DNA of 46,246 nucleotides from NCBI GenBank assembly GCA_009927255.1, contig RFNJ01000125.1, forward strand, positions 1 through 46,246, written 5' to 3'. Positions 1-36,795 of the stretch are shown here, piece after piece (position 1 is the first letter of the stretch; each line of letters begins with the position of its first letter). Position numbers and translations under genes: made by a program. The DNA is from Pseudomonadota bacterium. GTDB taxonomy: Bacteria > Pseudomonadota > Alphaproteobacteria > UBA2136 > UBA6156. Below the pieces are notes generated by a model. The model was not told the origin of the DNA and did not search any database. It worked only from the letters and a program-made list of their open reading frames with translations.

Positions 1-4
1 CAAG

Positions 5-1753
5 GTGAAGCCGACCCGCGGGATTGCGGTGAGTGGGGTGGCGAATGGTGGCGAGAATATTCGGGTGATGGTGGTGATGGGGGTTTTGAGCCTGCTGTTT
101 GCGGTGGTGGGCGTGCGGTTGGCCTTTGTGGCGCTGATGCCGCCAGCCGAGCCGCGGGCGAGTATTCGGGAAATGCCGCGTGAGGCGTTGCGGCGGGGGA
201 ATATTTATGACCGTAATGGCGTGCTGGTGGCGGCGACGTTGCGGGTTTATAGCCTTTATGCCGACCCCAAGCGGGTGTTGGACCCCGTGGAAGTGGCCAA
301 CAAACTGCCCACCGTGCTGAAGGGGGTGAGTGCGGTGCATTTGCTGGGGCTGTTGACTGATCCGAACCGACGGTTTGTGTGGATTAAGCGGCGGCTGACG
401 CCGGATGAGGCTGCGGCGGTGCATGCGCTGGGGCTGCCGGGGTTGGAGTTTCGGGAGGAGTTTGTGCGGGTGTATCCGCACCGCGAGATGGCGGGGCATT
501 TGTTGGGGGCGGTGGATGTGGACAACAACGGGTTGGCGGGGGTGGAGCGTGGGCAGGATGCGACGTTGCGGCAGGGTGAGGATGTTCACCTTGCGTTGGA
601 TGTGCGGTTGCAGGAATTGCTGCGCAAGCGGGTGCGCGATGCGATGGAGAAGGCGGGCGCCAAGGCGGCGTGGGGCTTGGTGATGAAGGCGCCAACGCGG
701 GAGATTGTGGCGATGGTGAGCTTGCCGGACTTTGACCCGAACCATTTGGGTGAGGCGAGTGCGGAGGCGCGGTTTAATCGGGCGGTGTTGGCGAGTTATG
801 AGATGGGGAGCACGTTTAAGCTTTTTACGCTGGCGCAGGGGTTGGCCGAGGGGCGGATTACGCCGGAGACCAAGATTGATTGCCGTGAGCCGATTGTGAT
901 TGGGCGGTTTACGATTAAGGATTATCACGCCAAGAAGAGCATTTTGACCGCCACCGAAGTGATGCGTTACAGCAGTAATATTGGCGCGGCGAAGATTGCC
1001 GACATGAGTGGGCCAGCGTTGCAAAAGGAATTTATGCGCAAGCTGGGGTTTTTGGAGCCGGTGCGGATTGGGGTGAGTGAAGTGGGGCCGGTGCGCTACC
1101 CGAGCAACTGGGGGCGGGTGCAGACGTTTACCATTGCTTTTGGCCACGGGATGATGGTGACGCCGGTGCATTTGGTGGCGGCGGTGGCGGCGCTGGCGGA
1201 TGGGCAATATAAGGTGCCGAGTGTGTTGCTGGGCGGGGTGGCGAGTGACACGGTGGCGCTGGGCAAGCAGCGGCAGGTGGTGGATGAGCAGACGCTGGGG
1301 CAGGTACATGAGCTGATGCGCGATGTGGTGCTGAATGGCAGCGGGCGGAGTTCGCAGTTGGCGGGGTTTGATATTGGTGGCAAGACCGGGACGGCGGAGA
1401 AAATTAGTGGACGGGGCTATGACAAGGGCAAAAATATTGTGAGCTTTGTGGGGGTGTTGCCGGTGAAAAACCCTGAGTATGTGACGCTGGTGATGCTGGA
1501 TGAGCCGCAGAAAGGCTTTGAGACCGGTGGCAAGAGTGCGGCGCCCGCGGTGGGGGCTTTCTATCGTGACTTGACCCAATTGGCGGGGCTGAAGCCAGAC
1601 ATGGAGGAGGTGGCGGCTTATCGCGAACTTTTGGCGCGGAGCAAGCGGCGGGAGGATGATCCGTGGTCGGTTTATTTATTGAGTGACTTTAGGGCGAAGC
1701 GGGCGATGGCTTTGGGGAAGAAAATGGAGTTGGAGGATGGGGTGCATGATTAA
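5..1753 (+). CDS. ftsI: Peptidoglycan D,D-transpeptidase FtsI (class B PBP)
   Basis: 582-aa ORF with an N-terminal TM helix (VMVVMGVLSLLFAVVGVRLAFVAL). Transpeptidase motifs STFK, SSN and KTGT are present. It heads a dcw-type gene run. The GTG start is 4 nt from the window edge, so the true start could lie upstream. Confidence 0.85.
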   Translation: MKPTRGIAVSGVANGGENIRVMVVMGVLSLLFAVVGVRLAFVALMPPAEPRASIREMPREALRRGNIYDRNGVLVAATLRVYSLYADPKRVLDPVEVANKLPTVLKGVSAVHLLGLLTDPNRRFVWIKRRLTPDEAAAVHALGLPGLEFREEFVRVYPHREMAGHLLGAVDVDNNGLAGVERGQDATLRQGEDVHLALDVRLQELLRKRVRDAMEKAGAKAAWGLVMKAPTREIVAMVSLPDFDPNHLGEASAEARFNRAVLASYEMGSTFKLFTLAQGLAEGRITPETKIDCREPIVIGRFTIKDYHAKKSILTATEVMRYSSNIGAAKIADMSGPALQKEFMRKLGFLEPVRIGVSEVGPVRYPSNWGRVQTFTIAFGHGMMVTPVHLVAAVAALADGQYKVPSVLLGGVASDTVALGKQRQVVDEQTLGQVHELMRDVVLNGSGRSSQLAGFDIGGKTGTAEKISGRGYDKGKNIVSFVGVLPVKNPEYVTLVMLDEPQKGFETGGKSAAPAVGAFYRDLTQLAGLKPDMEEVAAYRELLARSKRREDDPWSVYLLSDFRAKRAMALGKKMELEDGVHD

Positions 1754-1754
1754 G

Positions 1755-1854
1755 TTAACACATTTGCCCGCCTACGCCCGCGCTGCGCTTCGGGCTTCGG
1801 CGCGCGGCTATTTTGCTAAATTCGCTACGCTCATTAAGCAAAATATGCCGGAGG
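1755..1854. repeat. 100-bp palindromic intergenic repeat inserted between ftsI and murE, flanked by a 19-bp direct duplication
   Basis: Positions 1766-1850 match 18614-18698 at about 77 of 85 positions. The insert is flanked by the perfect direct repeat gatggggtgcatgattaag at 1736-1754 and 1855-1873. It contains GC hairpins plus the arms tattttgct / agcaaaata. Confidence 0.8.
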
Positions 1855-1864
1855 GATGGGGTGC

Positions 1865-3310
1865 ATGATTAAGATTGAGCAGGCGTTGGAGTTGCTGCGG
1901 GGGAAGCGGGTGGTGGAGGATAGTCGGGAGGTGGTGGGTATTGCTGATGCTTTGGTGTGGGATAGTCGGATTATGAAGGGGGGCGGGGTGGAGTTTGTGC
2001 GGGCGGCTTTGGATAAGGGGGCGACGGTGGTGACGGATTTAGAGGTTCAAGGAGCTGTGCGGGTGGCGGATGCGGGGGAGGTTTTGGCGCGGTATGCGGC
2101 GGGGCATTGGCCCAAGCAGCCTGCCAAGATTGTGGGGGTGACGGGGACGGCGGGGAAGAGCAGTGTGGCGTGGTTTTGCCAGCAGATTGGCCGCCAGATG
2201 AACAGTGCGGCGGTGGGGACGTTGGGGGTGATTCGGGAAGATAAGGTGGTGGAATATACGGGATATACCAGCCCGAGTGCGTTGAAGGTTCATCCCATTT
2301 TGCAAAGTTTGGCGGAGGATGGGGTGGGCTTGGCGGCGCTGGAAGTGAGCAGCCATGCGCTGGCGCTGCGGCGGATGGACGGCGTGCGGTTTTGTGCGGC
2401 GGGATATACCAACTTTACGCAGGACCATTTGGATTTTCATGGCAGCATGGAGGAGTATTTTTTGGCCAAGCTGCGGCTTTTTAGTGAGGTTTTGCCGGAA
2501 AATGGCTTGGCGGTGGTGAATGTGCGGCGGCAGGAATTGTGGCCGATTTTGGGCGTGGTGAAGCAGCGCGGTGGCAAGCTTTTGAGTGTGGGCACCAGCA
2601 ATGCCGAGCTGGTGGTGGAAGTGGTGCGGGCGGATGCGCGGGGGCTGCAGGTGAATTTGAAACTTGACCGTGTGCCAGTGGCGCTGGAGTTGCCGTTGGT
2701 GGGGAGTTTTCAGGCGGATAACTTGGCGGTGGCGCTGGGGCTGATGGTGGGGGCGGGGATGGCGTGGGGGGAGATTGCCACGGCGGCGGCGCATGTGACG
2801 AGTGTGGCGGGGCGGATGGAGATTGTGGGCGGTGGAAAGGCGAAAGGGCAGGGGGCTTTGGCCAAGGGTGGTAGGCCGACGGTGGTGGTGGATTATGCGC
2901 ATAAGCCGGATGCTTTGCGGCGGGCTTTGGAGGCTTTACGGCCGATGGTGGTGGGCAGTGGGAAGCTGCGGGTGGTGTTTGGCTGTGGGGGGAATCGGGA
3001 TGCGGGGAAACGCCCGATTATGGGTAAGATTGCGGCGGAGTTGGCGGATGCGGTTTATGTGACCGATGATAATCCGCGGCGGGAGGAGGCGGGGGGTATT
3101 CGCGACGCCGTGGTGGCGGGGGTGGTGGCGGGGGGCAAGAAGCCGCGCAATATTGGCGACCGCAGGAAGGCCATTTTGGCGGCGCTGAATGACAGCGGGC
3201 CGGATGATGTGGTGCTGGTGGCGGGTAAGGGGCATGAGGATGGGCAGATAGTGGGGGAGACGGTTTTGCCTTTTGATGACCGGGTGGTGGTGAGAGAATT
3301 GTTGGGGTAG
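1865..3310 (+). CDS. murE: UDP-N-acetylmuramoyl-L-alanyl-D-glutamate--2,6-diaminopimelate ligase
   Basis: Mur ligase P-loop GVTGTAGKSS and a DNPR motif (VTDDNPRRE). Position after ftsI fits murE. The ATG at 1865 has GGAGGG 9 nt upstream; the ORF track start at 1856 abuts the SD and is less likely. Confidence 0.85.
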   Translation: MIKIEQALELLRGKRVVEDSREVVGIADALVWDSRIMKGGGVEFVRAALDKGATVVTDLEVQGAVRVADAGEVLARYAAGHWPKQPAKIVGVTGTAGKSSVAWFCQQIGRQMNSAAVGTLGVIREDKVVEYTGYTSPSALKVHPILQSLAEDGVGLAALEVSSHALALRRMDGVRFCAAGYTNFTQDHLDFHGSMEEYFLAKLRLFSEVLPENGLAVVNVRRQELWPILGVVKQRGGKLLSVGTSNAELVVEVVRADARGLQVNLKLDRVPVALELPLVGSFQADNLAVALGLMVGAGMAWGEIATAAAHVTSVAGRMEIVGGGKAKGQGALAKGGRPTVVVDYAHKPDALRRALEALRPMVVGSGKLRVVFGCGGNRDAGKRPIMGKIAAELADAVYVTDDNPRREEAGGIRDAVVAGVVAGGKKPRNIGDRRKAILAALNDSGPDDVVLVAGKGHEDGQIVGETVLPFDDRVVVRELLG

Positions 3311-3375
3311 GGTAGGTAACCGGTTGACCGGATGACAGGGTGACCGGATAAGAGGATTTAGGGAAGGGTAAGTTG

Positions 3376-4266
3376 ATGAAGAAGATGCGGATGGGGTGGT
3401 TGGGGGTGGTTTTGGTTTCGGCTTTGGTGGCTTTTATGGTGGTGAAGTTATTGAGTCCGGCGCCGATTGTGGGGGGGAGTGGCGCGGCGGTTGCTGAGGG
3501 GGCTTTTGAGCGGGTGCTGCGGACGGGGGTTTTGCGGTGTAGCTATATTGTGTATCCGCCCGAAACCATAAAAGACCCGACCACCGGTGAGTTGAGTGGT
3601 GTGGTGGTGGATGTGACTGAGGAGGCGGCCAAGCGCTTGGGGCTGAAGGTAGAGTGGGTGGAGGAGGTGAATTTTTCCAATATGTTTGAGGGCTTAAAGG
3701 CCGGTAGCCATGATGCGGTGTGTGCGGGGATTTGGGAGAATCCACGGCGGGCGCGGGTGGCGCTGTTTACCACGCCGATTGATTATGGTTTGACGTTTGC
3801 GTTTGTGCGTGGGGGGGATAAGCGGTTTGATGCGGATATTATGAAAATTAACAGCCCCGAGGTGACGATTGCAGTGCTGGATGGGGAGTTTGGGGAGTAT
3901 TTGGCGAAGGAGCGCTTCCCCAAGGCCAAGCTTTACCACCTGCCGAGCACCAGCGATGTGGCGCAGGTGCCGGAAACCGTGGCGAGTGGCAAGGCGGATG
4001 TGGCGTTTGCGCAAAAGGGGCCGATGAAGCTTTATATGCAGCATAATCCCGGGAAATTGCGGGTGGCGGGGGTTGGGGACAATCCCGCGCCGATTTCGGC
4101 GATGCCGGGCAACCCGATTGCGGTGCGCTATGAGGACTGGAAGCTGAAGCTGATGCTGGATGCGGCGCTTAAGAATTTGATTAATAATGGATTTGTGGAG
4201 GAGGTGATACGCAAGTATGACCCGAAATTGGATAGTTATGCGCTGGTGGCGGTGCCGTTTCGGTAG
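3376..4266 (+). CDS. Periplasmic solute-binding protein, family 3 (amino-acid ABC type), orphan
   Basis: N-terminal signal/anchor (WLGVVLVSALVAFMVV). The pattern is SBP_bac_3-like: GVLRCSY..P......GELSGVVVDV..EAAKRLGLKVEWV...FSNMFEGLKAGSHDAVCAG. No permease or ATPase gene is adjacent. Confidence 0.65.
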   Translation: MKKMRMGWLGVVLVSALVAFMVVKLLSPAPIVGGSGAAVAEGAFERVLRTGVLRCSYIVYPPETIKDPTTGELSGVVVDVTEEAAKRLGLKVEWVEEVNFSNMFEGLKAGSHDAVCAGIWENPRRARVALFTTPIDYGLTFAFVRGGDKRFDADIMKINSPEVTIAVLDGEFGEYLAKERFPKAKLYHLPSTSDVAQVPETVASGKADVAFAQKGPMKLYMQHNPGKLRVAGVGDNPAPISAMPGNPIAVRYEDWKLKLMLDAALKNLINNGFVEEVIRKYDPKLDSYALVAVPFR

Positions 4267-4400
4267 GATGATAGGATTTTAGGGTGTTAGGATGTTAAGG
4301 GTATGAGGGGGCCGCGTTAGCTGTTTTTTTGGTGTGAATTGGTGGGGGAATTTTGGGCGGGGGGCTGGTTTTTGGTTGGGTTTGGGTGGATAGTGGGGGC

Positions 4401-5482
4401 ATGATTTATCATCTTTTGGTGCCGCTGGCGGAGTATGTGAGTTGGTTGAATGTGTTTCAATACCTGACCGTGCGGGCGGGGGGGGCGATGTTGACCGCGT
4501 TTGCTTTGTGGCTGCTGTTTGGCACGGCGTTGATTGCGAAGTTTCGGTTTTGGCAAAAGGGTGGTGATACGGTGAAGGCGATTTTGCCGCATGCGGGCAA
4601 GGCAGGGACGCCGACCATGGGCGGCGTGGGTGTGGTTGCAGCGCTGGTGGTGAGTGTGCTGCTGTGGACCAATTTGCTGAACCCTTATGTGTGGTTGATT
4701 TTGTTTGTGGTGGTGGGGTTTTTTACCGTGGGGTTTGTGGATGATTGGTTGAACTTGACGCGGCGCTGGCGGCGAGGGTTGCCGGGGCGGTTGCGGCTGC
4801 TGCTGGGAGCGGCGCTGGCGGTGGCGTTTTTGCTGGTGTATCAGCGGGTGAATGGGATGCCGGTGGCGACTGAGGTTTATTTTCCGTTTTTGAAAGACTG
4901 GGTGGTGGGACTTGGGGTGGTGGGGTTTGTGATTTTTGGGGTGTGCGTGATTGTGGGCTGTGCCAATGCAGTGAATATTACCGATGGGTTGGATGGGTTG
5001 GTGAGTATTCCGGCGGTGATTGTGGCGACGACTTTGGCGATTTTGGCGTATGTGATGGGGCGGGTGGATTATACGGCTTATTTGCATTTGCCCTACATTC
5101 CGGGAGCAGGCGAGGTGGCGGTGATGTGTGCGGCGTTGGCGGGGGCGATGCTGGGGTTTTTGTGGTTTAATGCGCCGCCGGCGCGGATTTTTTTGGGTGA
5201 TACCGGTAGCTTGCCGGTGGGGGCGATGCTGGGGGCGGTGGCGGTGTTGATTAAGCAGGAGTTTGCGTTGTTGATTATTGGGGGGTTGTTTGTGCTGGAG
5301 ACGCTGAGTGTTTTACTGCAGGTGGCGAGTTTTAAGTTGACGGGAAAAGGATATTTAGGATGGCGCCGTTGCACCACCACTTTGAGCAATTGGGCTGGCC
5401 GGAGAGTACGATTGTGGTGCGATTTTGGATTATCAGCATGATTTTGGCGCTGATTGGTTTGGCAACATTGAAGTTGAGATAG
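4401..5482 (+). CDS. mraY: Phospho-N-acetylmuramoyl-pentapeptide transferase MraY, reading frame broken by a -1 frameshift at 5342-5348
   Basis: [29 protein letters not shown] is a canonical MraY N-terminus. The zero frame runs to TGA at 5441 with a non-homologous tail. The -1 frame from 5348 encodes [44 protein letters not shown], the conserved MraY C-terminus, ending with TAG at 5480-5482. The joined product is 360 aa. Confidence 0.85.
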
Positions 5483-5489
5483 GTGCAGG

Positions 5490-6872
5490 ATGGCTTACGG
5501 GTTACGCAAAGATAAGGCGGTGCTGGTTTATGGCCTGGCGGGCAGCGGGCGGGCGGTGGTGGAGAAGCTGGCGGAGGCGGGCATGCGGCTGCTGGTGTGG
5601 GATGATAAGTTGGCGGAGATGCCAGAGGCTTTGCGCGGGCTTGAGCGGGTGTTTTGGGTGCCGCCGGCGGAGATTGAGTGGCGTGATGTGCAGGTGTTGA
5701 TTAAGACGCCGGGGGTGCCGATGGAGAGTGATTTGGTGCGGGCGGCGCAGGCGGCCAAAGTGCCGGTGATGGGCGAGATTGATTTGTTTTGGCGGCGGGA
5801 GAAGGCGAGTGGGGCGACGTTTATTGGGGTGACCGGCACCAATGGCAAGAGCACGACTACTGCGTTGATTGCGCATATTTTGAAGAGTGCGGGGAAGCAG
5901 GTTTTGGCGGGGGGGAACCTGGGGGTGCCCGCGATGTATTTGGGCGAGCTGGAGAGTGGTGGATTTTATGTGCTGGAGCTTTCGAGCTACCAACTGGAAA
6001 TCATGCAGGAGATGGCGCTGGATGGGGCGGTGTTTTTGAACCTGACGCCGGACCACTTGGCGCGGCACAAGACGATGGAGAGTTATCGGGCGGCCAAACA
6101 GCGGATTTTTGATTTGGCCAAACCTGACGCGACCAAAGTGCTGGGGGTTGACCAGTTATTGCTGCGCGAGATTGCGGCTGGCACCGGCGCGATAACGGTG
6201 AGTGTGGGTGGTGAGGCCGAGGTGATGGTGCGTGATGGGGCGGTGTGGCGCGAGGGCAAGCAGGTGTTGAAGCTGGGGGATTTTGTGGATTTGCCAGGGC
6301 CGCATAATGCGCAGAACTTGGCGTGTGCGTTTGCGCTGCTGGTGCCGCGGTGGTGTTCGGTGGCGGAATTTGTGGCGGGGGCGAAGAGTTATCGGGCGTT
6401 GCCGCACCGTTTGGAGCAAGTGGGGGCGGTGGAGGGCATTCGGTTTATTAACGACAGCAAGGCGACCAATGGCGACAGTGCGGTTTATGCTTTGCAGAGT
6501 TATCCGGCGATTTATTGGATTTGCGGGGGGCAGCCGAAGACCGATGGTTTGGGGGCGTGTGTGGAGCACTTGGGGGCGGTGCGGGCGGCGTTTACGATTG
6601 GGGAAGCGGGCGAAGATTTTGCCGCGACTTTGCAGAAACGTGGCGTGGCGGCGTTTGTGAGTGGCACGATGGAGCGGGCGGTGGTGGAGGCTTTTGCGGC
6701 GGCCAAAAGTGATGTGGGTAAGGGGCCGGTGGTGTTGCTTTCGCCCGCGTGTGCGAGCTTTGACCAGTTTCGGAATTTTGAGCATCGGGGCGATGTGTTC
6801 GCGAATTGTGTGCGGGGGTTGATTCAGGACGGTGAGCCTGCGCCGCGGCGGAAGAAGGATAGCGAGGCATGA
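5490..6872 (+). CDS. murD: UDP-N-acetylmuramoylalanine--D-glutamate ligase
   Basis: 460 aa with an N-terminal Rossmann motif (VLVYGLAGSGRA) and Mur ligase P-loop GVTGTNGKSTT. dcw position between mraY and ftsW. Confidence 0.85.
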   Translation: MAYGLRKDKAVLVYGLAGSGRAVVEKLAEAGMRLLVWDDKLAEMPEALRGLERVFWVPPAEIEWRDVQVLIKTPGVPMESDLVRAAQAAKVPVMGEIDLFWRREKASGATFIGVTGTNGKSTTTALIAHILKSAGKQVLAGGNLGVPAMYLGELESGGFYVLELSSYQLEIMQEMALDGAVFLNLTPDHLARHKTMESYRAAKQRIFDLAKPDATKVLGVDQLLLREIAAGTGAITVSVGGEAEVMVRDGAVWREGKQVLKLGDFVDLPGPHNAQNLACAFALLVPRWCSVAEFVAGAKSYRALPHRLEQVGAVEGIRFINDSKATNGDSAVYALQSYPAIYWICGGQPKTDGLGACVEHLGAVRAAFTIGEAGEDFAATLQKRGVAAFVSGTMERAVVEAFAAAKSDVGKGPVVLLSPACASFDQFRNFEHRGDVFANCVRGLIQDGEPAPRRKKDSEA

Positions 6873-7981
6873 GTTTATTCCGGCAAAGCAGGCACCCGAT
6901 TGTGCGGTGGTGGTGGGAAATGGACCGCGTGAGCGTGATTACGTTGTTGGTAATTATGTTGTGTGGTGCGGTGGCGGTGACCACCGCGAGTGTGGCGGTG
7001 GCGAAAACGTATAACGTGGGGGCGTATTATTTTGCGTTGCGGCAGTATGTTTTTTTGGGCGTGGCAGCTGGTTTAATGGTTGTTTTAACAGGTTTAAAAC
7101 CGGTGGGGGTGCAGCGGTTGGGGATGATTTTATTTGGGGTGGCTTTTGTGGGGCTTTTGCTTACTTTTGTGCTGGGTGTGGAAGTGAAAGGGGCGAAACG
7201 GTGGTTGGAGATTGCTGGGCAGAGTGTGCAACCTACTGAATTTTTGAAGCCTGCCTTGATTATTTTGACCGCGATGCTGCTGGCGCATGATGAACCGCAG
7301 CGGCGCTTGCAGGGATTTTTAGTGAGTATTGTTTTGATGGCGATGGTAGCGATTCCGGTATTGTTACAGCCTAACTTTGGGATGGTTTTGGCAATGGGAA
7401 CGGTGTGGTTTGCGCAGGTTTTTATGGCGGGACTACCGCTTTTGTGGTTGGCGCCCTTGGTAGCGGGGGGGCTTTGTGTGGTGGTGGGGAGTTATATGTT
7501 GCTGCCGCACGTGCGTGACCGTTTGGAGCGGTTTGTGAACCCGGGGGCGAGTGATACCTACCAGATTGACCAAGCCAGCGAGGCGATTATGGCGGGGCAC
7601 CTGTGGGGCCGTGGGGCGGGGGAAGGGGTGGTGAAAAACCAACTGCCGGATGCCCACACCGACTTTATTTTTGCGGTGGTGGTGGAGGAATTTGGGATTT
7701 TGGTGGGGCTGATGTTGATGGGATTGTTTTTGTTTTTGGTGTTGCGCGGGTTTAGCCGCGTGGTGGAGCAGGATGACCGCTTTGTGCTGCTGGCGGCGGG
7801 TGGGCTGTTGACGCTGGTGAGCTTGCATGTGTGTGTGAACATTGGGGTGGCGTTGCATCTTGTTCCGACCACGGGGATGACGTTGCCGTTTGTGAGTTAT
7901 GGGGGGTCTTCCACCTTTGCAATGGCGTTGGTGTTTGGGTTGTTGTTGGCTTTGTTACGTAAGCAGGGGCGGCGGTTTTGA
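6869..7981 (+). CDS. ftsW: Peptidoglycan glycosyltransferase / lipid II flippase FtsW (SEDS family)
   Basis: 370-aa polytopic protein with a SEDS C-terminal signature (LPDAHTDFIFAVV, GMTLPFVSYGGSS). ATGA overlap with the murD stop. Confidence 0.85.
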   Translation: MSLFRQSRHPIVRWWWEMDRVSVITLLVIMLCGAVAVTTASVAVAKTYNVGAYYFALRQYVFLGVAAGLMVVLTGLKPVGVQRLGMILFGVAFVGLLLTFVLGVEVKGAKRWLEIAGQSVQPTEFLKPALIILTAMLLAHDEPQRRLQGFLVSIVLMAMVAIPVLLQPNFGMVLAMGTVWFAQVFMAGLPLLWLAPLVAGGLCVVVGSYMLLPHVRDRLERFVNPGASDTYQIDQASEAIMAGHLWGRGAGEGVVKNQLPDAHTDFIFAVVVEEFGILVGLMLMGLFLFLVLRGFSRVVEQDDRFVLLAAGGLLTLVSLHVCVNIGVALHLVPTTGMTLPFVSYGGSSTFAMALVFGLLLALLRKQGRRF

Positions 7982-9105
7982 TGGGCAGCAACTTGACCGT
8001 TTTGGTGGCGAGTGGGGCGAGTGGGGGGCATTTGTTCCCCGCCATTGCGGTGGCCAAGGAATTGCAGCGGGAAGGGGTGGCGGTGCAGTTGGTGTTGGGT
8101 GGGGGCCGTTTTGCCGAGGTGGTGGAGCGGGCGGAGTTGCCTTATGTGCGGCTACCTGCGGCGGCGTTTAATGATCGGGGGGTGGTGGGGCTTTTGTGGG
8201 CGAGCATCCGGCTGCTGATGGGGATGCTGGTGGCGTTGCAGTTGGTATGGCGGGTGCGGCCCGCGGCGGTGTTTGGCACGGGGGGGTATGCCACGGTGGC
8301 GTTGCTGGTGGCGGGGAAGTTGCTGGGGGTGCCGGTGGTGATTCATGAGCAAAATGTGCTGCCGGGGCGGGCGAATCGGCTGTTGGCGCGGTGGGCGGAT
8401 GTGGTGATTGTGACGTTTGCGGAGAGTGTGACGTATCTGCCGAAAAGATGTGGCAAGGTGCTGGTGCTGGGGACACCGTTGCGCGATGAGATTTTGGCGC
8501 TGGCTAAGGTCAAGCGGAGGGCGGCGGCGGACTTTAGGTTGTTGATTTTGGGGGGGAGCCAAGGGGCGCGAATCTTGGGTGACGTGGTGCCGGAAATGGT
8601 GGCGCTGATGAGCCGTGAAGAGCGCCAAAGCTTGGTGGTGGTGCAGCAGGTGCGGCCTGAGGATATGGCGCGGGTGAAGGCGATTTATGCCGACTTGGAG
8701 CTGGCGGGGTTTGAGGTGGCGGCGTTTTTTAATGACTTGCCGCAGCGCTACTTGCAGGCCGATGTGGTGATTGGGCGGAGTGGGGTGGGGACGGTGTTGG
8801 AGGCGGCGACGTTGGGGTTGCCGGCGATTTATGTGCCGCTGGAACTGGCGGATGGGCACCAAAAGCTGAATGCGGCGGTGGCCGAGCGGGCGGGGGCGGC
8901 GGTGGTGGTGGAGCAAGCGTATTTTACCCCTGCCAGCCTGCTGGTGCATGTGCGGGCTTTACGAAATGCGCCGCAAAAGCTAGAAGCGATGGCAATGGCG
9001 GCTCGCCAGCTGGCTAATCCCACCGCGACGCGGGATGTGGCGGCGGCGGTGCGGGGAGTGATGCCTAAGAATATTGGGCTTAAAAAAATGGGCCTCAAGA
9101 GTTGA
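7981..9105 (+). CDS. murG: UDP-N-acetylglucosamine--N-acetylmuramyl-(pentapeptide) pyrophosphoryl-undecaprenol GlcNAc transferase
   Basis: N-terminus ASGASGGHLFPAIAVAKEL matches the GGTGGH-type motif. dcw position fits. TGATG overlap with the ftsW stop. Confidence 0.85.
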   Translation: MGSNLTVLVASGASGGHLFPAIAVAKELQREGVAVQLVLGGGRFAEVVERAELPYVRLPAAAFNDRGVVGLLWASIRLLMGMLVALQLVWRVRPAAVFGTGGYATVALLVAGKLLGVPVVIHEQNVLPGRANRLLARWADVVIVTFAESVTYLPKRCGKVLVLGTPLRDEILALAKVKRRAAADFRLLILGGSQGARILGDVVPEMVALMSREERQSLVVVQQVRPEDMARVKAIYADLELAGFEVAAFFNDLPQRYLQADVVIGRSGVGTVLEAATLGLPAIYVPLELADGHQKLNAAVAERAGAAVVVEQAYFTPASLLVHVRALRNAPQKLEAMAMAARQLANPTATRDVAAAVRGVMPKNIGLKKMGLKS

Positions 9106-9134
9106 GGCCGCAGAGATAGGAAAGGATTGAGCAG

Positions 9135-10523
9135 ATGAAGATTTTTGGTGCGGAGGTGCGGGGGCAGGTGTTCCATTTTATTGGTGTGGGCGGGATTGGG
9201 ATGAGTGGTTTGGCCCAAGCCTTGGCCAGCCAAGGGGCGGTGGTGAGCGGCAGCGATGCGGGCAGCAAGGGTGACTTTGCGATGCTGGAGCGGGCGAAGG
9301 TGCAGGTATTTAGGGGGCATGCGGCGGCGCAGGTGCCAGCGGGGGCGTGCGTGGTGGTGAGCACCGCGGTGCCGCAGGATAATGTGGAGCTGGTGGCGGC
9401 GAAGCGGTTGGGGCTGCGGGTGGTGCATCGGGCCGAGATTTTGGCGGAGATTATGCAGAATTACAGCACCATTGCGGTGAGTGGGACGCATGGCAAGACC
9501 AGCACCACCGCGCTGATTTATGGGGCTTTGTGCGCGGCGGGAGTGGAGGTGGGGATTGTGAATGGGGGGATTTTGAATGAACTTGGTAGTAATGTGGCTT
9601 TGCCGAGGAAAAAGAGCGGTTGGTTGGTGGTGGAGGCGGACGAGAGCGATGCGAGCTTTTTGAAGCTGAAGCCGGATGTGGCGGTGATTACCAACATTGA
9701 GCCAGAGCATATGGACACCTTTGGCACCGAGGAGAAACTGGTGGAGGCGTTTGTGGCTTTTGCCGACAGTGCGGCGGAAGCGGTGCTGTGTGCGGATGAC
9801 CCGAACACGATGATTGTGGCGGCGCGCACCGAGGCGGATGTGGTGAGCTATGGCTTGGATGACAGCGCGGATGTTTATGCGGGGAGTTATGTTCCGCAAG
9901 GCGCGGGGATGGCCTTTGATGCCCATGTGCGCGGTGGCGTGCTGGAAGATGTGGTGGTGGCGTTGCCGGGGGTGCATTATGTGCAAAACAGCCTTGCCGC
10001 GCTGGCGGTGGCGAGTGTGGTGAAGGCTGATGTGGTGAAGGCGGCGGAAGGGTTGGCGGCGTTTAAGGGCGTGGGGCGGCGGTTTACCAAGGTGGGGACT
10101 TTTCATGGGGCGGATGTGATTGATGACTATGGGCATCACCCGACTGAAATTGCCACCACGCTGGAAGCGGCAAAGGGGATTTATAAGCAGGTGATTGCTG
10201 TTATTCAGCCGCACCGTTACAGCCGTTTGCGTGACCTGATGGATGAGTTTGCGGGGTGTGCGAAGGTGGCGGATGCGTGCGTTATTCTGCCAGTTTACAG
10301 CGCGGGCGAGGCGGCGATTGCGGGGGTGAGCCATGAGGTGTTGGGGGAGAAGATGAAGGCTTTGGGGTATCCGGAAGAGGTGCGGGTGGTGGCGGATGAG
10401 AATGGCTTAATGAAGGCGTTGCACCACTTGGAGATTGGGCCTGGGGGTGCGATTGTGTGCCTTGGCGCGGGGACGATTACGGACTTTGCGCGGGGGTTGG
10501 TGGCGCATCATTGTCATCATTAG
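9135..10523 (+). CDS. murC: UDP-N-acetylmuramate--L-alanine ligase
   Basis: HFIGVGGIGMSGLAQAL N-terminal motif and GTHGKTSTT P-loop. 462 aa, so there is no Ddl fusion. Confidence 0.85.
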   Translation: MKIFGAEVRGQVFHFIGVGGIGMSGLAQALASQGAVVSGSDAGSKGDFAMLERAKVQVFRGHAAAQVPAGACVVVSTAVPQDNVELVAAKRLGLRVVHRAEILAEIMQNYSTIAVSGTHGKTSTTALIYGALCAAGVEVGIVNGGILNELGSNVALPRKKSGWLVVEADESDASFLKLKPDVAVITNIEPEHMDTFGTEEKLVEAFVAFADSAAEAVLCADDPNTMIVAARTEADVVSYGLDDSADVYAGSYVPQGAGMAFDAHVRGGVLEDVVVALPGVHYVQNSLAALAVASVVKADVVKAAEGLAAFKGVGRRFTKVGTFHGADVIDDYGHHPTEIATTLEAAKGIYKQVIAVIQPHRYSRLRDLMDEFAGCAKVADACVILPVYSAGEAAIAGVSHEVLGEKMKALGYPEEVRVVADENGLMKALHHLEIGPGGAIVCLGAGTITDFARGLVAHHCHH

Positions 10524-10532
10524 GAATTTATC

Positions 10533-11525
10533 ATGAAAACATGGCCGGTGCCGGAGTGGTTGGGGGAGTTGCCCTCGCGAGTAAATGCTGGCGCATTTGC
10601 TCACGAGGCAGGCTTTGGGCCACAGTATGTGGTGAATGGGGCGTTGGCGGAGCTGACGACGATTAAGGTGGGGGGGCCGGCGGAGGTTTTGGCCACGGTG
10701 CACGACTGGGGGCAGATGGCGGCGCTGCGGCGGTTTTGCACCGAGCGCAAGGTTGCGCTGACGTTGGTGGGCAAGGGCAGCAATATGGTGGTGCGGGATG
10801 GGGGGATTGGGGGGGTGGTGGTGTTGATGGGGAAGGGGGTGGATAGGGTTGAGGTGCGGGGTGAGGAGATTTACGCTGAGGCAGGGGTGGCTTGTGGGAC
10901 GGTGGCGCGGGCGGCGCGGGAGGCGGGGCTAGCTGGGTTGGCGTTTTTTGGGGGTATCCCGGGGAGCATTGGCGGAGCTTTGCGGATGAATGCGGGGGCT
11001 TATGGCAGTGAGACGTTTGATGCGCTGGTGCAGGTGTGGTGCCTTGATGCGCTGGGTGAAGAGCGAGTGCTTAAGCCTTTGGAATTGAAGCCGAGATATC
11101 GGGGGACAGAGTTGCCGGAGGGGTGGATTTATAAGGCGGGGTTGTGGCGCTTGGCGGTGGGGGACAAGGAGCAGATACGGGAACAGATGCGGGAGATTAA
11201 CCGGGCGCGGAGTAGCAGCCAGCCGTTGCATATGCCCAGCAGCGGCAGTTGGTTTAAGAATGTGGTGCTGCCCCGTGACATTGAGGGCTTGGGCAAGGCG
11301 GGGGAAAAGGTGAATGCGTGGAAGGTGGTGGATGCGGCGGGGTGCCGTGGGTGGGTGGAAGGTGGGGCGCAGGTGAGTGAGCAGCATTGCAATTTTTTTG
11401 TGAACACTGGCAATGCTTTGGCGCGGGATTTTGATGTTTTGAGTGAGCGGGTGGAGGTGGCGATTTTGGATAAATTGGGGATTGTTATTGGGCGGGAGGT
11501 GCGGTTTGTGGGGGTTGACGGTTAA
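10533..11525 (+). CDS. murB: UDP-N-acetylenolpyruvoylglucosamine reductase
   Basis: FAD-binding pattern TTIKVGGPAE ... VGKGSNMVVRDGG ... GIPGSIGGALRMNAGAYG. dcw position fits. Confidence 0.8.
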   Translation: MKTWPVPEWLGELPSRVNAGAFAHEAGFGPQYVVNGALAELTTIKVGGPAEVLATVHDWGQMAALRRFCTERKVALTLVGKGSNMVVRDGGIGGVVVLMGKGVDRVEVRGEEIYAEAGVACGTVARAAREAGLAGLAFFGGIPGSIGGALRMNAGAYGSETFDALVQVWCLDALGEERVLKPLELKPRYRGTELPEGWIYKAGLWRLAVGDKEQIREQMREINRARSSSQPLHMPSSGSWFKNVVLPRDIEGLGKAGEKVNAWKVVDAAGCRGWVEGGAQVSEQHCNFFVNTGNALARDFDVLSERVEVAILDKLGIVIGREVRFVGVDG

Positions 11526-11612
11526 ACTTATATAGTATACGTTTATGATGCTAAAGCTCACCATTCCCATGGTGGGAATGGGACATCAGGAGGCCCCGCA
11601 AGGGGATTTAAC

Positions 11613-11891
11613 ATGGCGAAGACATTGACGCTGAATGTAGTGATTCCGAATGCGGAGGTAGACCCTGGTTCTGTTGAGGAGGTTTTGAAAGTGCTATTTT
11701 ACAACTTAGGGCAAGAGAATCAAGTAAAAGCTAGCTTGATTGGGGATGCATCTGAGCCGACCATTAAGCTTCCATCATTGGATATCAAGGATATCGACCT
11801 GATACTTACGGCGCTGGATAGGCCGTTTAATGTGGTGGTGGATAATACGCCGCCGCCGGCGGCTGAGGGTGAGACGGCTGAAGGTGAATGA
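11613..11891 (+). CDS. Small acidic hypothetical protein (92 aa) occupying the usual ddl slot
   Basis: ORF with an SD-like sequence upstream, no TM segment and an acidic, Pro-rich C-terminus (PPPAAEGETAEGE). Its codon usage lacks the local G/T bias. I recognise no family. Confidence 0.4.
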   Translation: MAKTLTLNVVIPNAEVDPGSVEEVLKVLFYNLGQENQVKASLIGDASEPTIKLPSLDIKDIDLILTALDRPFNVVVDNTPPPAAEGETAEGE

Positions 11892-12095
11892 GTTATTCCG
11901 ATAGGCGTTTTAGGAGGGGGGCTGTGAGGCCCCTCTCTTTTTGGTTACAGGGGGGACACAGGGGGTGGGGGTTTTGGTTGGTTTTAGTTAGGTTTGGTGG
12001 TTTTGTATGTGGTGTTTGGGGTGGGTTTTGGTTAGAGTGTGGGGAGGCGCAGGTGCGCTTTTGGGTTGCATTTTATGATGAAAGGAGGCCGCTGG

Positions 12096-13007
12096 ATGGT
12101 TGATTTGTTCCGCGCTGCGGCTGACCTTGGGGTGACGCCGGCAGCGGAGAGTGATGAGCAGGAGATTGGCCGTGGGCGGCGCTGGTTGGCGCGCTTTGAA
12201 CAGCGGGTGGCGGCGTGGCCGTGGCGGCGGCTGGGGCAGGGGGCTTTGGTGGTGGTGGTGCTGAGTGGGGTGGGGGTGGCGTGGTGGTGGCGGGCTCCGT
12301 TGGGTGAGGCGCTGACCACCTATGTGGCGGAGGCGACGGGGGCCACTGTGCAGAGTTTGGTGGTGAGTGGGGCAGTTTATAGCGGCAAAGAGGAATTGCA
12401 GCAGGCGCTGGGCTTGGGCAAGGGGGATAGCTTGGTGGGCTTTGATGCGGCGGCGGCGCGGAGGCGGATTGAGGCGTTGCCGTGGGTGCGGTTGGCGAGT
12501 GTTGACCGCCAGTTGCCGGCTACGGTGAAGGTGACGGTTTATGAGCATGTGCCGCTGGCGCGGGTGGTTTTTGAGGGAGCAATTTGGGTGGTGAACCAAA
12601 ATGGTGAGCGGGTGGTGGAAGACCGCGAGAACCGCTTTGCCAACTTGCCGCTGTTGCAGGGGGAAGGGGCGGGGGCGGCGGCGGGGGCGTTGTTTGGTGC
12701 GATGGAAGTGTGGCCGCAGTTGTTGGGGCAATTACGTGAGGCCAAGCTGGTGGGGGGGCGGCGTTGGGATTTGCGGTTTGTGAGCGGGGTGGTGGTGCAG
12801 TTGCCGGAGCAGGTTGCCGACTATGGCCCGAGTGTGGCGCTGCCGATTTTGGCCAAGCTGGAAGAAGCCCGCCATGTGCTGGCGCTGAATGGCGGCGAAG
12901 TGGATTTACGTTTGCCTGACCGCGTGGTGCTGCGGTTGCCGGAAGGGGTGCAAGCAGGGCCGGTTGTGAAGCCTGCTGAGGGCGCGGGCGGGCAGGGGCA
13001 AGTTTAA
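12096..13007 (+). CDS. ftsQ: Cell division protein FtsQ
   Basis: AGGAGG lies 7 nt upstream of the ATG at 12096. One TM (GALVVVVLSGVGVAWWW) is followed by a POTRA-like region (V.V.G....S.EEL..ALGL..G.SL...D.......IEALPWV..A.V.R.LP.TV.V.V.E). It sits directly upstream of ftsA. Confidence 0.75.
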   Translation: MVDLFRAAADLGVTPAAESDEQEIGRGRRWLARFEQRVAAWPWRRLGQGALVVVVLSGVGVAWWWRAPLGEALTTYVAEATGATVQSLVVSGAVYSGKEELQQALGLGKGDSLVGFDAAAARRRIEALPWVRLASVDRQLPATVKVTVYEHVPLARVVFEGAIWVVNQNGERVVEDRENRFANLPLLQGEGAGAAAGALFGAMEVWPQLLGQLREAKLVGGRRWDLRFVSGVVVQLPEQVADYGPSVALPILAKLEEARHVLALNGGEVDLRLPDRVVLRLPEGVQAGPVVKPAEGAGGQGQV

Positions 13008-13023
13008 TGCGAAAGGTGATGAC

Positions 13024-14274
13024 ATGGTGAAGACAAAAAACCGGATTGTGGCGGGGCTGGACATTGGCAGCAGCAAGGTGGCGTGTTTTATTGCCGAGTT
13101 GGATGAGTTTTATAATCCGCACATTTTGGGCTATGGCCAGCATGCGAGCACGGGCTTAAAGCGCGGGATGATTGTGGATATGGACCGCACGGAGACGGCA
13201 ATTCGGGAGGCGGTTCATGCGGCGGAGGATATGGCGGGGGTGGAAATTCAGGGGGTGTTGGTGAGCCTTGGCGGGGTGCATTTGCGCAGCCATATGACTG
13301 ATGGCTTGGTGGTGCTGAACAAGCAGGACATTACCGACGCGGATATTTTTAAGGTGATTGATGTGGCGCGGGCGCGGCAGATTGATAGTGATCGGCAGAT
13401 TATCCATGCGCAGGCGACGAAGTATGTGCTGGATAATCAGAGTGATATTCGAGATCCGCGTGGAATGACGGGGAGCCGCTTGGAGGCGGATGTGCATATT
13501 ATTACCGCGGCGACCAGTGCCATTCGGAATGTGGTGCGTTGTGTGGAGCGGGCGAATTTGGAAGTGATGGATATTGTGGTGCAGCCCTATGCCAGCGCGA
13601 TGGCGACGGTGGTGCCCGATGAGCGTGAGCTGGGGGTGGCGATGGTGGATATTGGCGGTGGCACTTGCGACTTGGCGATTTATGCCGAGGGGGCGCTGGT
13701 TTATACCGCGGTGATTCCGTTGGGTGGACAGCATGTGACGGCGGATATTGCGCGGGGACTTTCGACACCTTTGGCCGCAGCGGAGCGGATTAAGGTGCTG
13801 CATGGCTATGCTTTGGCGAGTGCGATTGTGGGTGATACCGAACTGGAAGTGCCGACCGTGGGTGATGAGACCAAGAATGGCCAGCAAGAGCCGGTGCATA
13901 TGAGCCAGAGTGCGTTGGCGGGGATTATTCAGCCGCGCTGCGAGGAGATGCTGGAGTTGATTCGGGATAAAATTGAACAGAGTGGGTTTGAGGCGGCGAT
14001 TGGTCGGCGTGTGGTGCTGACCGGTGGCGGTAGCCAACTGAATGGCTTGCGCCAGTTGGCGGAAGTGGTGCTGGATAAGAGTGTGCGCCTTGCTCGGCCT
14101 ACCGGGGTGCAGGGGCTTTCCGACCTTTCCGGCACGCCGCAATTTGCCACGGCTGTTGGACTGTTGCTTTATGGGGCGCGCCAAGCGGCGCAGGCCAGCC
14201 GCGTGCGGGTGGCGGACAGCAAAATTGCGGCGTGGGCGGGGCAGATGGCGAAGTGGTTGCGGTTTGCGAGTTAG
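13024..14274 (+). CDS. ftsA: Cell division protein FtsA
   Basis: Actin-like ATPase motifs GLDIGSSKV, VDIGGGTCD and VVLTGGGSQLNGL, with an amphipathic C-terminal tail. Confidence 0.9.
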   Translation: MVKTKNRIVAGLDIGSSKVACFIAELDEFYNPHILGYGQHASTGLKRGMIVDMDRTETAIREAVHAAEDMAGVEIQGVLVSLGGVHLRSHMTDGLVVLNKQDITDADIFKVIDVARARQIDSDRQIIHAQATKYVLDNQSDIRDPRGMTGSRLEADVHIITAATSAIRNVVRCVERANLEVMDIVVQPYASAMATVVPDERELGVAMVDIGGGTCDLAIYAEGALVYTAVIPLGGQHVTADIARGLSTPLAAAERIKVLHGYALASAIVGDTELEVPTVGDETKNGQQEPVHMSQSALAGIIQPRCEEMLELIRDKIEQSGFEAAIGRRVVLTGGGSQLNGLRQLAEVVLDKSVRLARPTGVQGLSDLSGTPQFATAVGLLLYGARQAAQASRVRVADSKIAAWAGQMAKWLRFAS

Positions 14275-14281
14275 GAAAGAC

Positions 14282-15001
14282 TTAAACGTTAAGTGAGCAG
14301 GACTTTTGGCCTTCGGCGAAGCCGGCGAGGTAGTCGGCGTTGTCCTTTAGGGCTTCGTTCTTTTTGCTACCGCATTGGCCGTTGGTTGGTTTGGCGCCAT
14401 CGGCGAGGCCAGTTTTGTAGAAGGTTTCGCGGGCTTTGCAGACGCTGAGGCCGATATCGTAGCCTTTGAGGTACTGGGCGTTATCGCCGATGCCAACGCG
14501 AACGTCTTTTTGCTTGCCGCACTTGTTTTCAATGACCAGTTGGCCGTCGTAGTAGCCGGCGTCGAAGAGTTTTTTCTCGTTTTCGGTAAGATTTTTTTGA
14601 TCTTGGACGGTGATGAGCTGTTGTTCAAGCGTGCTGACCTGCGTGCGGAGGGATTGGGTGTAGGAATCGTTATAACCGCCGCCACTTCCGCTTGAACCAC
14701 CACTACCACCATTTTTTTGCATGAGCTGTTGGAGCATTTGGATGAACATGGCGAGCAGACCAGTGAGGCCACCGTTGAGGGTTGGCCAATCGGGGGTGCC
14801 GCCGCGGCTGCCGTAGGGGTCGCCAAAGCCACCACTCGGACCACCACCACCGAAAATACGAGCGAGGGGATTATTGTTAGGGTTATTGCCGGGATTGGCC
14901 CATGGATTAAAGGCATGAGTACTGCTGATGCTGCTGACGGTGAGCAGGGTGGCCATGGCGGTGCAGGTGAGGATGCGGGGGAGGGAGTATTTGTGCTTCA
15001 T
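14282..15001 (-). CDS. Secreted hypothetical protein: Gly/Asn-rich region, coiled coil and C-terminal Cys-containing repeats
   Basis: Signal peptide (MKHKYSLPRILTCTAMATLLTVSSISSTHA). Low-complexity GGGGPSGG / GGSGGSSGSGGG tracts. Repeated xDNAxYLxG(Y/F)xxG modules (LFDAGYYDG, AQYLKGYDIG, ADYLAGFAEG) carry four Cys. No family recognised. Confidence 0.55.
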   Translation of the reverse strand: MKHKYSLPRILTCTAMATLLTVSSISSTHAFNPWANPGNNPNNNPLARIFGGGGPSGGFGDPYGSRGGTPDWPTLNGGLTGLLAMFIQMLQQLMQKNGGSGGSSGSGGGYNDSYTQSLRTQVSTLEQQLITVQDQKNLTENEKKLFDAGYYDGQLVIENKCGKQKDVRVGIGDNAQYLKGYDIGLSVCKARETFYKTGLADGAKPTNGQCGSKKNEALKDNADYLAGFAEGQKSCSLNV

Positions 15002-15039
15002 ATATTAATTATGGGTTGTTTTTTGGGCTGTTGCAAGGG

Positions 15040-16827
15040 TTAGTGTTCCAGCACGTAGGTGCCGGGGGCGGGGCAGAGGGCGGGGTAGGCTTTGTTGCCT
15101 TGTTGTTTGGGGGCTTCGACCTCTTTACCGCTGTGGGGTTTGAGCCAGAGGGCATAATCCGTCCACCAGCTATCGGGCTGTTGGGGGGCTTTTTCTAGCC
15201 ATTTTTCGGCGGTGGGGGCTTTGCCGCCAGCGGGGACTTCCGCGACCCAATAGCTGCGTTTGACCGGCTTGCCTTCGGGTGTGGGGGGGCTGACGACGCC
15301 TGCCACGTGGCCAGCTTTGGTGAGGGCCAAGCGTTTGTTATTGCTGGCCATTTGGGAGAGGGCGCTGTAGCAGGCTTGCCAGGGGGTGATATGGTCGGTA
15401 ACGCCGGTGAGCATATAGATGGGGATGGAGATGCTTTGCAGGTTGACCGGGGTGCCGAGCAGGGTGAGTTTGTTGGGTTTTATCAGGTTGTTTTCGAGGT
15501 AGAGCTGGCGGAGATACCAGCTGTGCATGGCGCAGGGCATGTTGGTGTTGTCGCCGTTCCAGTAGAGCAAATCGAATGGCATAGGAGTTTTGCCGAGCAG
15601 GTAGTTGTTGACGACGAAGTTCCAGATGAGGTCGTTCGCGCGGAGCATGGAGAAGGTGGTGGCCATGCTGCGGCCGCTGAGGATGCCGTCGCGCTGCATT
15701 TGTTTTTCCAGTGCGGTGAGCTGGGCTTCGTCGGTGAAGAGTTTGAGTTCGCCCGCGTTGGCGAAGTCCATGAGGGTGGTGAGGAAGGTGGCGGTGGCGA
15801 TGCGGGTGTCATTCTTGGCTTGCATGATGGCCAACGCTGCGCCGAGCATGGTGCCGCCGATGCAGTAGCCGACTGCGTTGAGGCTTTTTTCGCCGGTGAT
15901 GGACAGGGTGGCGTCGACCGCAGCATAGAGGCCGTCGGTGATGTAGTTTTCAAAACCGATGTTGCGGTATTCTGGCGTGGGGTTCTTCCAGCTGACCATG
16001 AAGACTTGATAGCCTTGGTTGACCAAGAACTTGACCAAGCTGTTTTCGGGTTTGAGGTCGAGGATATAATACCGGTTTATCCATGGTGGGCAGATGAGCA
16101 GGGGCTTTTGGTGGACTTGCTTGGTGGTTGGGGCATATTGGATGAGTTCGATAAGGTGATTGCGGAAGACCACGTGGCCTGGGGTGACGCCGATGTTGTG
16201 GCCGACTTTAAAGGCGGATTCATCGGTGAGGCTGATGCGGCCAGATTGGACATCGGTAACAAAATTTTTGAAGCCGTTGAGGAGGGATTCGCCTTTGCTT
16301 TCGAGTGCCGCTTGCTGGGCTTCGGGGTTGGTGAGGAGGAAGTTGGCGGGGCTGAGGGCATCGGCGAACTGTTGGGTGTAGAACTCGACTTTGGCTTGGT
16401 CTTCGGGCGATAAGCCTTTGGCAGACTGGGCGGTGCTGAGCAGGTAGCGGCTGGCGAGGAGATAGGATTGTTTGAGGAGGTTGGCGTAGCCTTGGCTCCA
16501 GCTGGGGTGGTTGAAGCGTTTGTCTTCTTTTTCGGGTTCGATGACGTTGGTGGGGGGGCTGCTTGGATTTTGGCCGAGCATGCTTTCGAGTATATTGGCG
16601 CCGAGCAGGAGGTTTTGTTGGTAGTAGTGGAAGCTGCGTTGGGTGCTTTCGTGCGGGTTGGCGGCGAGGCTTTGGGCGGCTTGGGCGAAGGCTTGGAGGA
16701 GGGGTTGGAGGCCCCTGAGTTGGTCGGCGGCTTGTTCGGCGGGTTTGCTGAGTGCGGTTTGCAAGGCTTGTGTGGCTTGCTGGACAAGCTGGGTGGGGTT
16801 GAATGGGGTGGAGGTGCTGTTGGGCAT
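15040..16827 (-). CDS. phaC: Class I poly(3-hydroxyalkanoate) synthase
   Basis: 595 aa counted from MPNSTSTPF. Lipase box GYCIGG is present. Typical PhaC N-domain (FNHPSWSQ, WINRYYILDL). The upstream 106 codons of the tracked ORF are His/Arg-rich compositional read-through. Confidence 0.85.
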   Translation of the reverse strand: MPNSTSTPFNPTQLVQQATQALQTALSKPAEQAADQLRGLQPLLQAFAQAAQSLAANPHESTQRSFHYYQQNLLLGANILESMLGQNPSSPPTNVIEPEKEDKRFNHPSWSQGYANLLKQSYLLASRYLLSTAQSAKGLSPEDQAKVEFYTQQFADALSPANFLLTNPEAQQAALESKGESLLNGFKNFVTDVQSGRISLTDESAFKVGHNIGVTPGHVVFRNHLIELIQYAPTTKQVHQKPLLICPPWINRYYILDLKPENSLVKFLVNQGYQVFMVSWKNPTPEYRNIGFENYITDGLYAAVDATLSITGEKSLNAVGYCIGGTMLGAALAIMQAKNDTRIATATFLTTLMDFANAGELKLFTDEAQLTALEKQMQRDGILSGRSMATTFSMLRANDLIWNFVVNNYLLGKTPMPFDLLYWNGDNTNMPCAMHSWYLRQLYLENNLIKPNKLTLLGTPVNLQSISIPIYMLTGVTDHITPWQACYSALSQMASNNKRLALTKAGHVAGVVSPPTPEGKPVKRSYWVAEVPAGGKAPTAEKWLEKAPQQPDSWWTDYALWLKPHSGKEVEAPKQQGNKAYPALCPAPGTYVLEH

Positions 16828-16890
16828 GGACAGGGCCGATTTTGTTGTTGATTGTTGGGACAACGCTAACAGAAGAAGTAAGCAAGCACA

Positions 16891-18006: not shown

Positions 18007-18043
18007 CCGGATGACAGGATGGCCGGATTACCGGGTGACAGGA

Positions 18044-18067
18044 AGGGGCCTTGCGGCCCCTTTTTTA
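18044..18067 (+). terminator. Rho-independent terminator
   Basis: aggggcc-ttgc-ggcccct stem-loop followed by tttttt, 38 nt after the stop at 18006. Confidence 0.7.
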
Positions 18068-18083
18068 GTGGTTGGTTTGTTGG

Positions 18084-18494
18084 CTATTTGCCTTTTTTCA
18101 GCAGGTCGCGGATTTGGGTGAGGAGTTCTTCTTGGGTTGGGCCTTTGGGCGCGGCAGGGGCTTCCTTGGGCTTGGGCATCATTTTGTTCATGAGTTTAAC
18201 CATCAAGAAGATGGCGAAGGCGATGATGGTGAAGTCGACAATTGTTTGCAGGAAGGCGCCGTAGCCGATGTTGACGGCGGGAGAGTCGGCATACAGCGCG
18301 CCTTTGGCCATGAGGGTTAGGGCGAGGTCTTTGACGTTCACGCCGGCGATGAGGAAGCCGACGATGGGCATGATGATACTATCAACGAGCGCACTGACGA
18401 TTTTGCCGAAGGCGGTACCGATGACCACACCGACGGCGAGGTCGACCACGTTTCCGCGCATGGCGAAGGCTTTAAATTCTTGGAATATACTCAT
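18084..18494 (-). CDS. mscL: Large-conductance mechanosensitive channel
   Basis: [33 protein letters not shown] is the canonical MscL N-terminus. 136 aa with two TM segments. Confidence 0.9.
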
Positions 18495-18613
18495 GGAGGG
18501 AGCTTTCTGTTAGGGGTTTGAATTTTTTTGAAAATAGCTTGGGTTGGGGGGGTTGGCAAGGGGGGCGGGTTAAGGGATGAACGGGTTAACGGATGCAGGG
18601 GGTTTTGCTGAGG

Positions 18614-18846: not shown

Positions 18847-18920
18847 GGTGCCGGCTGAGAGGATTGAACTCCCGACCTTCGGTTTACAAAACCGCTGCAC
18901 TACCGCTGTGCTAAGCCGGC
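18846..18920 (-). tRNA. tRNA-Thr (anticodon UGU)
   Basis: The reverse complement folds as a cloverleaf: acceptor GCCGGCT/AGCCGGC, anticodon loop TTTGTAA, T-loop GGTTCAATCC-like (GAGTTCAATCC), encoded CCA. 75 nt. Confidence 0.85.
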
Positions 18921-32093: not shown

Positions 32094-32096
32094 AGG

Positions 32097-32126: not shown

Positions 32127-32141
32127 CCTCCTGTTAGAAGT

Positions 32142-36783: not shown

Positions 36784-36795
36784 CGTGGGGGTGAT

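Follow-up and report, generated by a model that had tools for sequence, protein, structure and literature searches.

An apparent -1 frameshift in mraY of an uncultured freshwater alphaproteobacterium is very probably a homopolymer undercall in the deposited sequence

MraY (phospho-N-acetylmuramoyl-pentapeptide transferase) is essential for peptidoglycan synthesis. In the dnaX gene of Escherichia coli, a programmed -1 frameshift takes place at the heptamer A_AAA_AAG, with a Shine-Dalgarno-like element upstream and a stem-loop downstream, and the frameshifted and unshifted products are both functional. In insect endosymbionts, frameshifted genes are reportedly rescued by transcriptional slippage at long poly(A) tracts of ~9 or more A's, the frameshifts being said to have been verified in DNA. 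Efficient transcriptional slippage needs runs of ~8-9 or more. Frame changes on paper can also come from sequencing, because flow-based platforms (Roche 454 or Ion Torrent) and long-read platforms characteristically undercall homopolymers. One Lake Lanier community sample was sequenced on two platforms, 454 FLX Titanium and Illumina GA II, and the 454 assemblies contained artificial homopolymer frameshifts, with A and T runs affected preferentially (Luo et al. 2012, PLoS One 7:e30087, PMC3277595).

The locus compared here with these systems lies in a 46,246-nucleotide stretch of DNA (hereafter the window; contig RFNJ01000125.1 of assembly GCA_009927255.1), in which the mraY gene (4401-5482, plus strand) changes frame at GGGAAAA (Table 1). 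From the ATG at 4401, the zero frame reads ...AAG TTG ACG GGA AAA GGA TAT TTA... and continues past the junction for 30 codons without resemblance to MraY, whereas the -1 frame, restarting at A5348, yields 44 residues that end in ...LKLR ahead of the stop codon. Joining the two frames gives a 360-aa MraY. A sequence-only reading of the window had reported this frame change and the 360-aa joined protein, and both its coordinates and its alignment to the E. coli enzyme were confirmed. According to our tblastn search of the window, mraY occupies one locus spread over two frames, carries no further lesions beyond the frame change, and has no second copy within the window. The joined protein scored 374.2 bits against TIGR00445 (cut-off, 192.05), covering profile positions 3-321 of 321, and aligned over residues 5-360 with E. 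coli MraY (PDB 8g01_A, 360 aa; E = 6e-102). In this alignment, the junction stretch pairs gap-free with E. coli FKLRGQRIFRMAPIHHHYE, and the C-terminal P-x-H-H-H loop pairs gap-free with E. coli RIFRMAPIHHHYE. With its equivalog-level score, its C-terminal loop, and its location in the dcw cluster, flanked by ftsI and murE upstream and by murD, ftsW, murG, murC, murB, ftsQ, and ftsA downstream, the joined protein is an MraY (TIGR00445 / PF00953).

Table 1. Features at and around the mraY locus, in window coordinates
Feature	Position	Strand	Evidence or remark
SBP_bac_3 ABC-type substrate-binding protein	3373..4266	+	Upstream of mraY, in the usual place of murF; NCBIfam amino-acid ABC binding matches; PF00497 in L081
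mraY, 5' part	4401..5348	+	Codons 1-316 of 360; window zero frame; translation, TIGR00445, alignment to 8g01_A
G_GGA_AAA heptamer	5342..5348	+	Formally X_XXY_YYZ; also present in the intact A5 gene
A4 run, one base short	5345..5348	+	A5 in other assemblies of the same population; apparent frameshift site
mraY, 3' part	5348..5482	+	-1 frame of the window; stop TAG 5480-5482; alignment and codon changes between alleles
Spurious 30-codon out-of-frame tail	5349..5441	+	Stop TGA 5439-5441; product of the missing base
murD, intact	5490..6872	+	TIGR01087, 363 bits; start 8 bases past the restored-frame mraY stop

The split in mraY is very probably not a real biological feature but a homopolymer undercall, from A5 to A4, in the deposited sequence. 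The DNA of the window occurs in public freshwater metagenome runs, and the matching runs were examined as Logan contigs, which drop rare variants. Over window positions 4300-6300, the contigs of three runs, X1 (depth, 14.1), X2 (7.05), and X3 (8.89), exhibited 0 substitutions and a single gap. This gap was an extra A behind 5344, present at full contig depth, so that the run is A5 in these contigs versus A4 in the window. A contig of a fourth run, X4, carried the same extra A behind 5344, again at full contig depth. The A5 contigs read GGGAAAAAGG, that is, ACG GGA AAA AGG ATA TTT, which encodes T G K R I F without interruption, and GGGAAAAAGG is present in loci L082, L084, L085, and L088. The P-x-H-H-H loop is contiguous with the body of the enzyme in the A5 contigs, whereas the uncorrected window sequence has it in the -1 frame. 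A MurD identical to that of the window is encoded by seven assembled contigs, not all of them independent because some were assembled from the same runs as X1-X3, and mraY is intact in 7/7; four contain GGGAAAAAGG (SRR096386, SRR096387, ERZ28580101, and SRR8075935), and three contain GGGCAAGCGG (ERZ937303, GCA_009924635.1, and ERZ28575597). Two of these, SRR096386 and SRR096387, are Lake Lanier samples from 2009 (PMC5893860). Among ~15 billion proteins looked up, the 360-aa product of the gene with one A added has an exact record, and the truncated 346-aa product has none. The runs X1, X2, and X3 also contain contigs of higher depth (14-41) that match the HHH region of mraY (5349-5386) and part of murD (6089-6110) at ~87% identity; these belong to a co-occurring, more abundant relative and are not a second copy in this genome. 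The full-depth A5 in X1, X2, X3, and X4 supports the first option of the sequence-only reading, a homopolymer one base short. The same reading had held that one additional G or A bringing the gene back into a single frame would mark a plain sequencing error, and such an A is what the data contain at the contig level.

If the undercall is accepted, mraY would be an ordinary, uninterrupted 360-codon gene of an uncultured freshwater alphaproteobacterium present in the metagenomes of Lake Lanier. Its true sequence would be ACG GGA AAA AGG ATA, in place of which the window has ACG GGA AAA GG ATA, with one A of five absent and the gene split on paper. The undercall would have passed into the deposited consensus, the call in the window presumably having been taken from error-prone reads. 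What was found at the site agrees with such an artefact in three respects: the difference is one base in the length of a homopolymer, the other length restores the frame in four runs, and the short form recurs in data prone to homopolymer errors.

These error-prone data are from X6, the only run with a contig that agrees on A4. The contig is 371 b long, has a depth of 2, and starts at 5337; X6 itself is a shallow run, released in 2011, from the same study (P1) as X1 and X2. Compared with the window, X6 contigs displayed 17 listed one-base indels, with substitutions almost absent. All 17 indels fell in homopolymers, 16 were deletions, and 14 were located in runs of 4-8, although such runs make up just 11% of the positions in the window. 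At the end of one X6 contig is a loose stretch, CCTGTGTGCCTTGGCAGTCTCAG, which we take to be Roche 454 Titanium adaptor B plus key. Based on the error pattern and this presumed adaptor remnant, we infer that X6 represents flow-chemistry data in which homopolymers are systematically shortened, and its A4 is predicted by that shortening. The situation resembles the 454 artefacts described for the same lake (PMC3277595), in that a one-base length error in a homopolymer, here an A run, splits an intact gene, contigs of the Illumina type from the same community give the gene intact, and the dataset with the short form is rich in homopolymer indels and carries the adaptor remnant. The difference from that case (PMC3277595) is that a raw 454 assembly is far less clean than the window, which has a single indel over its 46 kb.

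The A4 contig of X6 could also be cited for a real single-base deletion, whether as a rare allele, in a single amplified cell, or in a lineage that has only just lost mraY function. The enzyme would then end before the HHH loop and be inactive, or else a low level of spontaneous frameshifting would keep the cell alive. The few SNPs that separate the window from X1 and X2, marking it as a distinct genotype or a consensus, fit such a deletion, and rare variants, such as a minority A4 allele, could go unseen in Logan contigs. However, MraY is essential; the other cell-wall and division genes of the cluster, namely ftsI, murE, murD, ftsW, murG, murC, murB, ftsQ, and ftsA, are intact and identical to those of the population; mraY has gathered no further lesions; and four other runs together with all contigs of the sister allele described below are in frame, while the A4 of X6 is what its homopolymer shortening leads one to expect. 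We consider a real deletion unlikely, and the inactivating mutation listed as the third option of the sequence-only reading is disfavored, given the intact cell-wall genes of the cluster and the error-prone nature of the sole A4 dataset.

The accuracy of the remaining window sequence bears on both the undercall and the deletion. Over all 46,246 bases, the additional A at 5344 was the only one-base indel relative to X1, X2, and X3, and a systematic error in the window was ruled out because this was the single one-base indel against three runs over 46 kb. Many longer homopolymers (G7, T7, and T8) are correct in the window. The consensus is thus generally good, which makes a lone error in a 5-mer somewhat unexpected. 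The remaining differences from X1-X3 comprise a few SNPs, a difference of ~25-54 bases by a tRNA-Val gene, and a 99-base intergenic skip in one X3 contig. Three SNPs, at 16647, 16675, and 20302, distinguish the window from X1 and X2; the window is therefore a slightly different genotype or consensus from X1/X2 and could in principle carry a private mutation. At the tRNA-Val(cac) gene (28579-28653), the X1/X2 contigs "go back 62 with 54 letters between," with ~25 extra bases, and X3 (2019) agrees with the window, which points to either a second, tandem copy or a variable spacer in the population of 2009. The 99-base skip occurs in an X3 contig of the diverged allele and removes part of the G/T-rich intergenic region upstream of mraY (window 4260-4360); it is a population indel in the putative leader or promoter region of mraY.

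A sister allele with ~96% identity to the window was found in X5, X7, ERZ937303 (locus L081), GCA_009924635.1, and ERZ28575597. Its site reads ACG GGC AAG CGG ATT TTT, encoding the same peptide without the A run and without the slippery heptamer. Comparison of the repaired window gene with the sister allele revealed 38 nucleotide differences, corresponding to 36 synonymous and 2 non-synonymous codon changes. Over the 44 codons past the junction, the MraY frame showed 4 synonymous and 0 non-synonymous changes between the alleles, compared with 1 synonymous and 2 non-synonymous changes when the same stretch was read in the zero frame of the window. The absence of non-synonymous changes in the MraY frame indicates that purifying selection acts on the C-terminal segment as an uninterrupted portion of MraY, and judging from alignment and codon changes alike, the -1 segment is the true continuation of mraY.

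The sister allele also weighs against programmed -1 frameshifting, the second option of the sequence-only reading, according to which tRNA-Gly and tRNA-Lys would re-pair in the -1 frame on G_GGA_AAA and produce full-length MraY. An X_XXY_YYZ-type heptamer exactly at the frame change and a joined product that is a perfect MraY speak for this mechanism, and the locus is similar to E. coli dnaX in having a valid heptamer, with a Lys codon in the A site, at the frame change. However, four runs from the same population have the in-frame A5 form in their DNA, and the closest allele, with GGC AAG CGG, dispenses with the heptamer while keeping the peptide. The G_GGA_AAA motif is the coding of a conserved Thr(ACG)-Gly(GGA)-Lys(AAA), and two Bradyrhizobium-like loci, L014 and L045, have the same heptamer in an unbroken mraY (ACG GGA AAA CGC). 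Across 11 genes of the dcw cluster, in-frame X_XXY_YYZ heptamers numbered 34 in 4,402 codon positions, approximately 1 per 130 codons, and 5 of the 34 lie in mraY itself. Moreover, any one-base loss in GGGAAAAA will necessarily appear to sit on a slippery site. The heptamer does fit the X_XXY_YYZ rule, as had been pointed out from the sequence, but it is not beyond chance, and its presence at the frame change is uninformative on its own.

Neither stimulatory elements nor relatives lend support to programmed frameshifting. The downstream structure that the sequence-only reading had proposed to look for was not found: in stem-loop folding without pseudoknots, the MFE of the 92 nt following the heptamer (5349-5440) was -24.5 kcal/mol, compared with an average of -23.5 for shuffled sequences (z = -0.33). 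By eye, no Shine-Dalgarno-like (AGGAGG-like) element was present in the 20 nt upstream of the heptamer. With respect to RNA, no RNA run contained the locus, and coverage was zero in three metatranscriptomes of a related study. The homologous site, also put forward for comparison, encodes TGKR[IV]FRMAP or a near variant in one frame in 41/41 alphaproteobacterial loci with a locatable motif, and none of these relatives shares the split. Among species-representative genomes, the closest was a pond MAG with 76% MraY identity, which has ACG CGT AAG CGC ATA at the site, and the best 120 database MraY proteins listed are nearly all 359-363 aa long. Of the hallmarks of a programmed -1 site, the locus thus has the heptamer and lacks a stimulator, a real split in the DNA, and conservation in relatives. 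In contrast to dnaX, mraY has no stimulators and no conserved split, its own DNA is in frame, and its zero-frame product would be a dead enzyme. As a conserved mechanism, programmed frameshifting is refuted by the in-frame relatives, and we assign it only a very slight probability at this locus.

A variant of the recoding explanation would have transcriptional slippage on the A run restore the frame in the mRNA. As in the endosymbiont genes, the frameshift here falls within an A run of an essential gene; unlike in those genes, the run is only 4-5 A's long and the population carries the gene in frame at the DNA level, and an A4 run is far too short for slippage of this kind. Equally hard to credit is a combination in which A4 is a real minority genotype of the lake, kept alive by unprogrammed, stimulator-less -1 slippage on G_GGA_AAA.

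Beyond mraY, the window has several features of its own. The dcw genes (1-15000) follow the order ftsI, murE, SBP_bac_3, mraY, murD, ftsW, murG, murC, murB, a gap of ~500 b, ftsQ, and ftsA. The ~500 b, at the usual place of ddl, hold one 92-aa ORF without a family match, and the SBP insertion is common to the sister allele (L081). The genes murF, ddl, and ftsZ are missing from their canonical dcw places, and none was found among the larger ORFs of the window scanned with NCBIfam or Pfam. The strands are also strongly asymmetric: over 1-19000 and 32000-46246, GC skew ranges from +0.3 to +0.47, with T > A and ~56-60% G+C, and it falls to about 0 to -0.17 over 20-32 kb. The high values are far above the GC skew typical of bacterial leading strands, which is under about 0.2. 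The skew persists across the minus-strand phaC (15040-17145), indicating that the asymmetry is not simply a coding-strand effect. In the 76%-related pond MAG (locus L001, 1-7000), GC skew is +0.2 to +0.35, and the asymmetry looks lineage-wide on this comparison. An alternative genetic code (UGA = Trp) was considered in view of the extreme base skew and rejected, as the fault in mraY is a frame change rather than a stop and the neighboring genes translate normally with table 11. Long ORFs run antisense to the dcw genes at 8829-10334, 2039-2902, 4317-5087, and 13156-14184, all on the minus strand, with ATG/TTG starts and lengths of up to 501 aa. Because a G+T-rich sense strand depletes stop codons on its complement, these ORFs are most likely spurious, and gene callers can be misled by them in this genome. 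Window positions 38813-44302 hold a set of genes resembling a type II/IV secretion system or pilus, with a T2SSE ATPase (38813-40507) and a T2SSF platform protein (40458-41609), followed by several ORFs without a family match. The strand asymmetry and the absence of murF, ddl, and ftsZ from the dcw cluster are more unusual than the split in mraY.

Within the 46 kb of the window, 1,089 homopolymer runs reach a length of 4 or more, and a general caution applies: where a genome is as G+T-rich and homopolymer-rich as this one, X_XXY_YYZ heptamers are frequent enough that homopolymer indels will often seem to lie "exactly on a slippery site." Recoding of an essential enzyme of cell-wall synthesis, as a real frameshift rescued by slippage would imply, would be unusual, and the evidence speaks strongly against it. 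Were A4 nonetheless a minority genotype, slippage would yield the small amount of MraY needed by a slow-growing planktonic cell and thereby buffer a lethal mutation. With the undercall as the favored explanation, mraY of this organism should be treated in annotation as an intact gene of 360 aa, with one A restored at 5345-5348, and not as a pseudogene or a recoding site.
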